Source: Conexivisphaerales archaeon (GTDB lineage Archaea > Thermoproteota > Nitrososphaeria > Conexivisphaerales > DTJL01). From it: DNA of 64,000 nt. Positions 2,859 to 31,135 of this stretch are shown in pieces; positions within the stretch are counted from its first letter, which is position 1, and every line of letters starts with the position of its first letter. Position numbers and translations under genes: made by a program. The notes below the pieces were generated by a model that saw only the letters and a list, made by a program, of their open reading frames with translations, did no database searches and was not told the DNA's origin. The stretch is from assembly GCA_049509455.1 (NCBI GenBank), contig JBEKZX010000002.1, forward strand, positions 26,485-90,484, given 5' to 3'.

Positions 2859-3044
2859 ATGTCTCCGAAAAGGGTAGGGCGTGATTCAATCTCTTTGCAT
2901 CAAACGGTAGCTTGTGTATTGAGAGCTGAACATGGTCACTGGGTGGATCAAGACGGCGATGAGACTGTAAGGCCAAAGCCGGAAGAGATGATGGGGTTAT
3001 TTCGTTCATTGAAGCTCAATGAATCGAGAGCAAGTATAAGGTAA
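2859..3044 (+). CDS. Possible small hypothetical protein (61 aa)
   Basis: ATG-initiated ORF filling an intergenic gap; no recognisable motif. Confidence 0.25.
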   Translation: MSPKRVGRDSISLHQTVACVLRAEHGHWVDQDGDETVRPKPEEMMGLFRSLKLNESRASIR

Positions 3045-3049
3045 ATATA
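3042..3049 (+). promoter_or_regulatory. TATA box of tRNA-Met gene
   Basis: TAAATATA placed so that +1 falls at about 3072. Confidence 0.6.
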
Positions 3050-3079
3050 CTGTCAGCAAGTAGGGATGCCTGCCGGGAG

Positions 3080-3210
3080 GCCGGGATTCAAACTTCAAGC
3101 CCGACAGCTCAGCCTGGTTAGAGCGCCAGCCTCCTTCGAAGGGCGATACTCATAATCTGGAGGTGGACGCGAGCCACCAGAAGTCGAGGGTTCGAAACCC
3201 TCTCCCGGCA
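3080..3210 (+). tRNA. tRNA-Met(CAT), probably elongator, with three BHB introns: 8/9 (3088-3105), 30/31 (3130-3147), 45/46 (3163-3182)
   Basis: Removing the three segments gives GCCGGGA-TA-GCTC-AGCCTGGTTA-GAGC-G-CCAGA-CTCATAA-TCTGG-AGGTC-GAGGG-TTCGAAA-CCCTC-TCCCGGC-A. Each junction has a perfect 4-bp central helix (CGGG/CCCG, CGCC/GGCG, CTGG/CCAG) with 3-nt bulges. Confidence 0.9.
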
Positions 3211-3212
3211 CC

Positions 3213-3221
3213 TTTTTCTTT
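3213..3221 (+). terminator. Oligo-T terminator after tRNA-Met
   Basis: TTTTTCTTT directly after the tRNA 3' end. Confidence 0.55.
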
Positions 3222-27446: not shown

Positions 27447-27454
27447 CTTAAAAA
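27447..27454 (+). promoter_or_regulatory. TATA box of tRNA-Thr(GGT) gene
   Basis: CTTAAAAA placed so that +1 falls at about 27477-27478. Confidence 0.55.
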
Positions 27455-27489
27455 CTCCCACTGGGTCGTGGCTTCAAGAGCCCCGGAAG

Positions 27490-27602
27490 GCCCCGGTACC
27501 TCGTCAGTGCCCGAGGCTGGAAAGCATAGTGGTCGAATGTGCTTCCTTGGTAGACTCGATACAAAGAGGAAGAGACCGCGGGTTCAAATCCCGCCCGGGG
27601 CT
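27490..27602 (+). tRNA. tRNA-Thr(GGT) with introns at 8/9 (27498-27522) and 37/38 (27553-27566)
   Basis: Spliced sequence GCCCCGG-TA-GCAT-AGTGGTCGA-ATGT-G-CTTCC-TTGGTAA-GGAAG-AGACC-GCGGG-TTCAAAT-CCCGC-CCGGGGC-T; U73 discriminator is typical of archaeal tRNA-Thr. Confidence 0.88.
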
Positions 27603-27680
27603 CCTTTTCAGAGGCGTCTAGAGTATGGTCTGACGCATGTCGCCAATTCAGAATCGAACGCATCTATCCCCTCGTGTGAG

Positions 27681-29361: not shown

Positions 29362-30285
29362 GTTCTTTCACTCAATGACTGAGGCTGTGAGATGCATGTA
29401 CCTCAAGGATTCTAGGTTCCAGAAGATGACCGACTTGGGTTTCGAGCCTCGCCTGGGTCACCATCTTGCTGAAGTGACCTCGGCCTGAGCCAGCCGTCGA
29501 AACGGTCACCGTTCAGGTCGCAATAAAGGACTGCTGGCTCTGGTTCCAAAACCATTATCGGTGAAGCTATCCTTCCTGCTTATCTAGACCATGTCTTCAG
29601 CCATTATAACGTCAGATGCCTCGAAGGCGTCAAAATCGCGCTTGGCGACCTACTTAACAGGAAGACCCTAGCCCTATTCACAGGACACGACTGGTTATAC
29701 GACAGGTTCTCGCAGGAATAGGCCCCCTCAACCACTAGCTCCTACTTTTCGGGAACCTCCCAAGTCGTAGTAGGTTGTTTACGTCAGGTAGGTTTCGACG
29801 GCCCCGAAATACGCCAACGAAGTTATGCCGCATCCCCCGAAAAGGGTTAGCTCATGTTAGCTCATTTCCTGTCGTCGGCCCGTCGGCGGTAGGTCGGTGA
29901 CGACAATTCTCCTTTCCGACCTAAGCCTGTTTCCTCTTCGTCAGTGTTAGGCCCACAGGCTCTATATTGGTCAACACGAACCAAAAACACTAAACGGAAC
30001 TAACCCCGCCACCGAGGGAACTAACCCTCCAACGGACCGCAAGAGCCACCAGAAGTCGAGGAAGGCTCGGGGGAGGGAGAGGAGGGAGGTCGGGAAGGCG
30101 CAAACCAATAAGGGAAGCAACGTAGACCACCGATGGGCAAAGTGCAGGTGCAATGGATTTACAACGGTTTCGAGGCGGAGATGACAGTACCGCAGTTGAC
30201 AGAACCCCTCGGCCCTAGTCGGCTCCCCACCGTCGCCTTCTTGCCCTGCACCTTCCTTCTTCCCTCGCCTCCTACCGTCGCGGGT

Positions 30286-31060: not shown

Positions 31061-31135
31061 AGCCTCGGAGGGGCTTCGCTCCCCTGACCCACAGCTTACA
31101 AGGCTGTTGCTCTAACTAGGCTGAGCTACCGAGGC
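31061..31135 (-). tRNA. tRNA-Thr(TGT) with atypical D- and T-loops
   Basis: GCCTCGG-TA-GCTC-AGCCTAGTTA-GAGC-A-ACAGC-CTTGTAA-GCTGT-GGGTC-AGGGG-AGCGAAG-CCCCT-CCGAGGC-T; all four stems pair perfectly. Confidence 0.85.

Follow-up and report, generated by a model that had tools for sequence, protein, structure and literature searches.

A conserved spare first strand in the leader most likely holds the 3' end during splicing of tRNAs with acceptor-proximal introns in a Nitrososphaerota archaeon

Closest described systems

Archaeal tRNA genes with non-canonical and multiple bulge-helix-bulge (BHB) introns have been described in Thermoproteales, Thaumarchaeota and Asgard archaea (PMC4090602, PMC4033280, 10.64898/2026.10.13.758758). 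The standard motif, in the definition of Marck and Grosjean quoted in the preprint 10.64898/2026.10.13.758758, consists of 3-nt bulges flanking a 4-bp helix. The genes analysed here resemble these known cases in their splice motif, in carrying up to three introns per gene and in the presence of two EndA-domain genes in the genome. However, the texts searched mention no leader element pairing with the 3' acceptor strand and treat acceptor-proximal introns as positions only, whereas here they come with an obligatory extra strand outside the gene. An intron in this place creates a folding conflict, as the splice motif and the acceptor stem share nucleotides and the 7-bp stem should win. A stand-in strand in the leader would resolve this conflict, would account for the sites at which introns can survive in tRNA genes with many interruptions, and would imply that splicing and 5' trimming follow a set order.

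Complementarity between leader and trailer is known from the split and permuted tRNAs of Nanoarchaeum equitans, Caldivirga, Thermofilum and Cyanidioschyzon (PMC4090602, PMC3218864, PMC3978253), in which, as here, pairing by sequence beyond the mature tRNA gives the precursor a processable shape. There, the paired flanks form a BHB that is cut by EndA, whereas the leader:3'-end helices of the present genes are uninterrupted over 7-13 bp, include the mature 3' strand, and contain neither a bulge nor a splice site. The leader would here free another strand for the BHB, and its own removal would need a different enzyme. A further likeness is found in the tRNA-Thr of Caldiarchaeum subterraneum, where long direct repeats of the tRNA 5' fragment enclose a 1.8-kb element with a recombinase gene, with no function proposed (PMC3293823). 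In both cases a tRNA that has acquired an intron is preceded by a repeat of its own 5' part, but the present copies are 7-10 nt long and 0-5 nt apart, unlike att-site repeats, with nothing between them, and are conserved for pairing.

Ordered removal of nested introns in multi-intron crenarchaeal pre-tRNAs was reportedly described by Tocchini-Valentini and colleagues in PNAS in 2009. The likeness to the present genes would be that alternative precursor folds set which BHB forms and in which order the steps proceed; the difference is that only introns are involved there, and no surrogate acceptor strand in the leader is known to take part.

An initial reading of this DNA, hereafter the first-pass annotation, had stated that no prior description of such a device was known. 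This agrees with our survey of the openly readable literature, in which a leader strand replacing the acceptor strand was found neither in the reviews PMC4090602 and PMC4033280, nor in the Caldiarchaeum paper PMC3293823, nor in the Asgard tRNA-intron preprint 10.64898/2026.10.13.758758, nor by full-text searches. On computational evidence, the genes encode non-canonical BHB-intron precursors with what is probably an added cis-acting guard strand. Every recognised acceptor-proximal-intron tRNA gene of this genome carries in its leader a conserved spare first strand, which most likely holds the 3' end during splicing.

Two window loci and the tRNA genes of the source genome

The window, the whole stretch of 64,000 nucleotides that was analysed (C53:26485-90484), belongs to a metagenome-assembled genome (MAG) of 2.05 Mb in 140 contigs with 58% G+C, whose ValRS is 78-81% identical to the ValRS of uncultured Nitrososphaerota soil MAGs. 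The first-pass annotation had claimed that the leader of tRNA-Met duplicates the 5' strand and forms 9 bp with the 3' end, and that tRNA-Thr(GGT) shares this design. Both claims proved exact. In tRNA-Met, TGCCGGGAG (3071-3079) is the exact reverse complement of 3202-3210 (nt 65-73), and GCCGGGA is repeated at 3080-3086. In tRNA-Thr(GGU), GAGCCCCGG (27478-27486) is the exact reverse complement of 27595-27603 (nt 66-74), and GCCCCGG is repeated at 27490-27496. Both genes were read by hand, tRNA-Met(CAU) with three introns (8/9, 30/31 and variable region) and tRNA-Thr(GGU) with two (8/9 and 37/38). The features of the tRNA-Met locus are as follows.

3042-3049, plus strand: TATA-like box TAAATATA, ending 22 nt 5' of the leader helix; putative promoter element
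3071-3079, plus strand: leader stand-in strand, pairing with nt 65-73 (3202-3210)
3080-3087, plus strand: exon 1, nt 1-8, GCCGGGAU; U8 and the D-arm register suit only this downstream copy
3088-3105, plus strand: intron 1 at 8/9, 18 nt; CCCG pairs with exon nt 3-6 (BHB geometry by hand)
3106-3129, plus strand: exon 2, nt 9-30; register set by orthologs
3130-3147, plus strand: intron 2 at 30/31, 18 nt; removal gives stem CCAGA/UCUGG and loop CUCAUAA
3148-3164, plus strand: exon 3 with anticodon CAU (manual reading and orthologs)
3165-3184, plus strand: variable-region intron 3, roughly 20 nt, with ends uncertain within 1-2 nt; intron-free relatives have AGGUC
3185-3210, plus strand: last exon with T arm, 3' acceptor strand (3203-3209) and discriminator A (3210)
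3211-3217, plus strand: trailer CC followed by a T run, a likely terminator

The tRNA-Thr(GGU) locus is laid out as follows.

27448-27454, plus strand: TATA-like box, ending 23 nt 5' of the leader helix
27478-27486, plus strand: leader stand-in strand, pairing with nt 66-74 (27595-27603)
27487-27489, plus strand: spacer AAG; 3-5 nt and variable among relatives
27490-27497, plus strand: exon 1, nt 1-8
27498-27522, plus strand: intron at 8/9, 25 nt, with inner hairpin CCUCG/CGAGG and a central helix with one C.U mismatch
27523-27604, plus strand: remainder, with a canonical 37/38 intron of about 14 nt, 3' strand (27595-27601), discriminator (27602) and trailer CC

In the 8/9 introns, exon nt 3-6 pair with the four intron bases preceding the 3' bulge, the bulges comprise nt 7, nt 8 and the first intron base on one side and two intron bases and nt 9 on the other, and nt 1-2 pair with nt 10-11. 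The Met BHB has a perfect central helix (CGGG/CCCG) and the bulges AU-U and AC-A, where the hyphen stands at the exon-intron boundary; the Gln BHB described below combines CGGU/GCCG with a 5-bp inner hairpin, and the Thr and Asn motifs share this geometry with one central-helix mismatch each, a relaxed form. The hand-spliced tRNAs showed the canonical register (U8, D arm, anticodon arm, T arm, 7-bp acceptor stem) and agreed with intronless orthologs, and Rfam tRNA matches span their exons. Two other arrangements were tried and rejected: an exon 1 made of the upstream copy, with a 7/8 intron, gives no BHB and would place C or G at position 8; for excision of the leader by a second EndA cut, no bulge-helix-bulge could be drawn between the two copies. 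The genome encodes a full-length RNase P RNA (C61:1448-1742, 186 bits) and two EndA ORFs, located at C130:25169-25402 and C108:22430-22684. The tRNA_int_endo domain matches of these ORFs score 94.7 and 67.5 bits, and a pair of such genes would fit a heteromeric enzyme. A separate observation is a 19-nt exact copy of the tRNA-Met interior at window positions 30043-30061, about 27 kb downstream of the gene, which corresponds to query positions 100-118, the end of the variable-region intron and a T-stem strand.

Both window genes are missed or only partly aligned by standard tools. ARAGORN misses them, and Rfam misaligns tRNA-Met and aligns Thr(GGU) only from model position 9, its match beginning at 27523; the leader strand may thus offer an annotation signature for introns overlooked by tRNA finders. 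We assembled a census of 40 recognised tRNA genes in this Nitrososphaerota MAG from Rfam matches, a T-arm/acceptor scan and an individually located Tyr gene; it is incomplete (the MAG is 95.5% complete), since a D-arm-based genome search for further hidden tRNA genes yielded only noise and ARAGORN with introns allowed made several doubtful calls in the genome. One ARAGORN call beyond the window (G000:C53:5033-5119), was reported as tRNA-Tyr, but its sequence, in which G-1 is encoded and the discriminator is C73, corresponds to tRNA-His(GUG); the genuine Tyr gene is a three-intron gene at C71:1196. In five of the 40 genes, the first intron lies at 8/9, 9/10 or 10/11, and each of them has the leader helix.

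tRNA-Met, window: first intron at 8/9
tRNA-Thr-GGU, window: first intron at 8/9
tRNA-Asn-GUU, contig C116: introns at 8/9, 30/31 and 38/39
tRNA-Tyr, contig C71: first intron at 9/10, three introns in all
tRNA-Gln-CUG, contig C75: first intron at 10/11; central helix with nt 5-8 and a perfect inner hairpin

The leader:3'-end helix comprised 8-10 contiguous pairs in all five genes, lying 0-4 nt before G1, with a duplex energy of -17.7 to -21.9 kcal/mol in the four genes computed. Among the other 35 genes, 34 reached at most 6 such pairs and one, Thr-UGU, reached 8, in a weaker, G.U-rich match (-13.6 kcal/mol) that starts 22 nt upstream of G1. The association between intron position and leader helix exceeds chance in this genome (about 1 in 100,000, Fisher's test, with a threshold picked post hoc from the data). 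The Tyr gene was examined only once the rule existed, and it fitted. The device had been tied to introns at 8/9; this holds for both window genes, whose introns follow directly after U8, but the 9/10 (Tyr) and 10/11 (Gln) cases widen the class. No comparable leader was found in genes of the same genome with introns from about 13/14 on (D arm, D loop, anticodon stem, T arm). Four other window tRNAs, all free of the duplicate, had also been reported; the duplicate is indeed absent, but only three such genes were found (Pro, Thr-TGT and Ala). The Thr(UGU) gene just mentioned (31061-31135, minus strand), the sole ordinary tRNA with an 8-bp leader match, has an odd T loop, AGCGAAG, where the UUCRAAU type is usual, and otherwise perfect stems.

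A mirror case, in which a 3'-proximal intron is joined to a copy in the trailer, was absent from a genome scan of orphan T arms; the tRNA-Asp genes of relatives, checked for the same arrangement, had only D-arm and T-loop introns. The Asp genes of the sister genera (L207-L210, G005-G008) carry a D-arm intron and a T-loop intron of about 20 nt, and that of the source genome has an intron directly 3' of the 5' strand of the T stem, so positions shift among genera within the family.

The TATA-like boxes of the five genes end 22-25 nt before the leader helix, compared with a median of 28 nt before G1 in the 35 ordinary genes. The earlier placement of +1 at the start of the duplicate is therefore consistent with the boxes of both window genes (22-23 nt before the helix), though it is the spacing from which the start is deduced. 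Judged from this spacing, transcription would start at or beside the first base of the leader helix, and the first one or two helix bases might lie outside the transcript.

Co-occurrence in relatives and predicted folding

Orthologs of the five genes were taken from 40-60 related genomes. All 38 acceptor-proximal-intron genes (Thr 8, Asn 7, Gln 8, Met 6, Tyr 9; five tRNA families) had a leader helix of 7-13 bp, counted in automatic classes ('D arm directly after position 9') with seven genes (three Thr, four others) reassigned by eye, and in related genomes that are not independent and represent about six independent origins. The approximately 81 distinct other tRNA genes at the same loci showed helices of 2-8 bp, none of at least 9. 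The co-occurrence proposed for checking by the first-pass annotation thus held in 5/5 genes of the genome and 38/38 of its relatives.

The Thr-GGU arrangement was the same in 8/8 genomes of the family, spanning four genera: GA+GCCCCGG, a spacer of 3-5 nt, exon 1 and the 8/9 intron, while the 12 nt upstream were about 30% identical and the intron interior about 46%. Across the family loci, the helix persists although identity falls to about 30% in the upstream flank and to about 46-54% inside the intron. Gln-CUG had both intron and leader in 8/8 family genomes and neither in seven genomes of other families; Tyr had both in nine family genomes and neither in fourteen loci outside the family; Asn had both in seven family genomes and neither in G001, a member of the same genus, nor in five genomes of other families. 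Met had both in four genomes of the genus and neither in the other genera of the family; three genomes of this genus share its leader strand letter for letter. In a distant family (f8), two genomes have a variant, independent version with leader GCCGGGA, exon GCCGAGA and 3' strand UCUCGGC (G.U pair). Intronless tRNAs with a duplicate had been named as a refuting observation; the intronless orthologs of Met, Asn, Gln and Tyr have no leader element. For four of the five genes, the arrangement appears to have been gained at the base of one family. The f8 tRNA-Met genes (L028, L029; G048, G051) combine an 8/9 intron of 14 nt, whose central helix is perfect, with a further intron of 12 nt in the T loop or T stem.

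Four precursors (Met, Gln, Thr and Asn) were folded in silico, once with their leader and once lacking it. With the leader, the minimum free energy (MFE) folds of all four had the 3' end bound by the leader and exon 1 by the intron, and the Met fold was the exact expected intron 1 BHB, including a 3-bp outer helix with the D-stem strand. Without it, exon 1 was predicted to make the normal acceptor stem with the intron simply looped out. The probability of pairing between exon 1 and the 3' strand was 0 with the leader and 0.86-1.0 without, as the proposed folding comparison had anticipated. The central helix had a probability of 0.50 with and 0.00 without the leader in Met, and of 0.85 and 0.01, respectively, in Gln. 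The leader lowered the cost of the canonical BHB by 3-10 kcal/mol in the four precursors (Met, 0 with and 10.3 without; Gln, 1.8 and 5.0; Thr, 7.9 and 13.8; Asn, 8.6 and 14.6 kcal/mol), an effect on folding that the computation demonstrates. In Thr and Asn, which have the central-helix mismatch, the canonical BHB was not the predicted fold even with the leader, at a cost of 8-9 kcal/mol. The claim that the leader replaces the 5' strand so that the BHB can fold accordingly draws support from four sides: co-occurrence, conservation, compensation in the trailer (see below) and this comparison.

The leader is probably a cis-acting helper of the pre-tRNA, which would form an outer helix with the 3' strand, then be replaced as stand-in and be removed. 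At its 5' end, the transcript would carry a short segment complementary to the 3' acceptor strand, to the discriminator and to the trailer bases next to it. This outer helix would sequester the 3' strand and leave the true 5' strand free to build the acceptor-proximal BHB. After ligation, the true strand would displace the stand-in, and RNase P would then remove the leader of 9-13 nt; both of these last steps we infer. A splice-first order would fit, speculatively, because the leader-paired form offers RNase P no cut site if the transcript starts at the helix. After in-silico splicing, the leader helix was still favoured, the ensemble being about 7-8 kcal/mol better than with the leader kept unpaired, so strand exchange is not spontaneous in this simple model; by nearest-neighbour energies of the spliced state, blocking exon 1 cost 1-5 kcal/mol less than blocking the leader. 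Help for the exchange would have to come from tertiary contacts within the tRNA core, from a trimmed trailer, or from RNase P catching the minor conformer.

The persistence of the helix after splicing would also suit a helix with a function other than enabling the BHB, such as protecting the ends of a slow precursor, or holding off RNase P, tRNase Z, CCA addition or aminoacylation for as long as the introns are in place. The helix covers the discriminator and nt 74-76, sites needed by these enzymes, and for Thr and Asn adding the leader is not enough to turn the BHB into the predicted fold. We consider this reading rather unlikely, because tRNAs with two or three introns elsewhere, which would mature equally slowly, have no such leader, and because the element tracks exactly those introns whose central helix needs acceptor nucleotides.

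The helper role could extend beyond this lineage. A general archaeal rule across phyla, by which an intron within about 10 nt of a tRNA end occurs only with a surrogate strand outside the gene, splicing obligatorily precedes trimming and the surrogate serves as a spare exon for one-step intron loss, is a tentative proposal, slightly less likely than not to hold. If it were true, hidden acceptor-proximal introns would be predictable from leader sequence alone.

Pairing constraint, origin and remaining alternatives

The leader strand had been described as a duplicate of the acceptor strand. The repeats are present, but 'anti-3'-end strand' is the better name, since the strand always pairs with the discriminator and often with nt 74-76. 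The base preceding the copy pairs with nt 73 in 22/22 lineage variants, compared with 16/35 ordinary genes of the source genome, and nt 74 is paired by the leader in 21/22 and 18/35, respectively. In one relative whose genes lack an encoded CCA (G006), the leaders track the trailers: its Gln leader has GAU opposite AUC (GGU opposite ACC in other genomes), its Tyr leader CGGU opposite ACCG (UGGU opposite ACCA in others), and its Thr leader GUGA opposite UUAU. As the leader follows changes in a trailer that is not part of the tRNA, comparison shows the helix to be selected for pairing and to be more than a remnant of duplication. Covariation of leader and acceptor was borne out in part: in two genera the 5:68 pair of the Asn acceptor stem switched from C:G to U:A and the leader followed, but G005, the one exception, kept its Asn leader unaltered and so has a C.A mismatch inside the helix. 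The remaining leader substitutions are compatible with pairing, among them C to U opposite G (Thr in G001, Asn in genus g1) and G opposite U (Met in f8). Exon 1, the downstream copy, is invariant and always followed by U8. Together with the pairing-compatible leader substitutions, this marks the downstream copy as the exon and the upstream copy as a helper under a weaker, pairing-only constraint.

The same comparisons bear on the view that the intron arose in an event (a local duplication, or an integration with recombination at the tRNA 5' end) that left the leader copy as a neutral scar, with no role in maturation. Relative to the TATA box and upstream bases, the copy occupies the place that the 5' strand takes in orthologs lacking the intron (Gln of family f2, with GGU+AGCCCGG, and Asn of G001), and a single indel comprising spacer, exon 1 and intron interconverts the composite and intronless forms, so co-occurrence may partly reflect joint gain and loss. 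Direct repeats of tRNA 5' parts after integration of an element are documented, and the Caldiarchaeum integration model (PMC3293823) is a possible source of the arrangement. However, neither window locus adjoins an integrase gene or element, the neighbours being acetyl-CoA synthetase, Lhr helicase and ValRS. A scar would also have had to survive in 38/38 genes of four genera, whose flanks and intron interiors have drifted apart to 30-54% identity, to accept only pairing-compatible substitutions, and to reach the discriminator and trailer, which no copy of nt 1-7 contains, tracking the G006 trailer changes as well. A scar without function is thus unlikely, and the conservation pattern argues for a function of the leader after its origin, whatever that origin.

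The identity of the two copies in Met and Thr, either of which could pair with the 3' end of the intron, allows a reading in which the upstream copy serves as exon 1, be it the real or an alternative one, and the intron includes the downstream copy; the intronless Asn gene of G001, moreover, starts at the place of the upstream copy. This is very improbable, as it is the downstream copy that is invariant and followed by U8, whereas the upstream copy is degenerate (Asn GCUGCCG; Gln in genus g1, AGCCC only; Thr in G003, GCCCCGU) and followed by A, G or U, and as a pseudoknot would result if the upstream copy paired with the intron and, at the same time, the downstream copy with the 3' strand. A spurious local duplication in the assembly, conceivable in a MAG of 140 contigs and named in the first-pass annotation as a possible refutation, is in effect refuted, because genomes assembled separately, from four genera and from a second family, show this architecture with differences in sequence.

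The tRNA-Asn gene of G001 (L068) has lost the 8/9 intron and the leader copy and retains the 30/31 and 38/39 introns; its sequence equals the composite gene minus one segment (the rest of the spacer, exon 1, U8 and the intron), so the upstream copy may have turned into the exon by a single deletion. In intronless Gln genes (L098, L099; G012, G009), GGU stands before G1 and is complementary to A73-C74-C75, an extended acceptor helix that may have pre-adapted this gene for the later arrangement.
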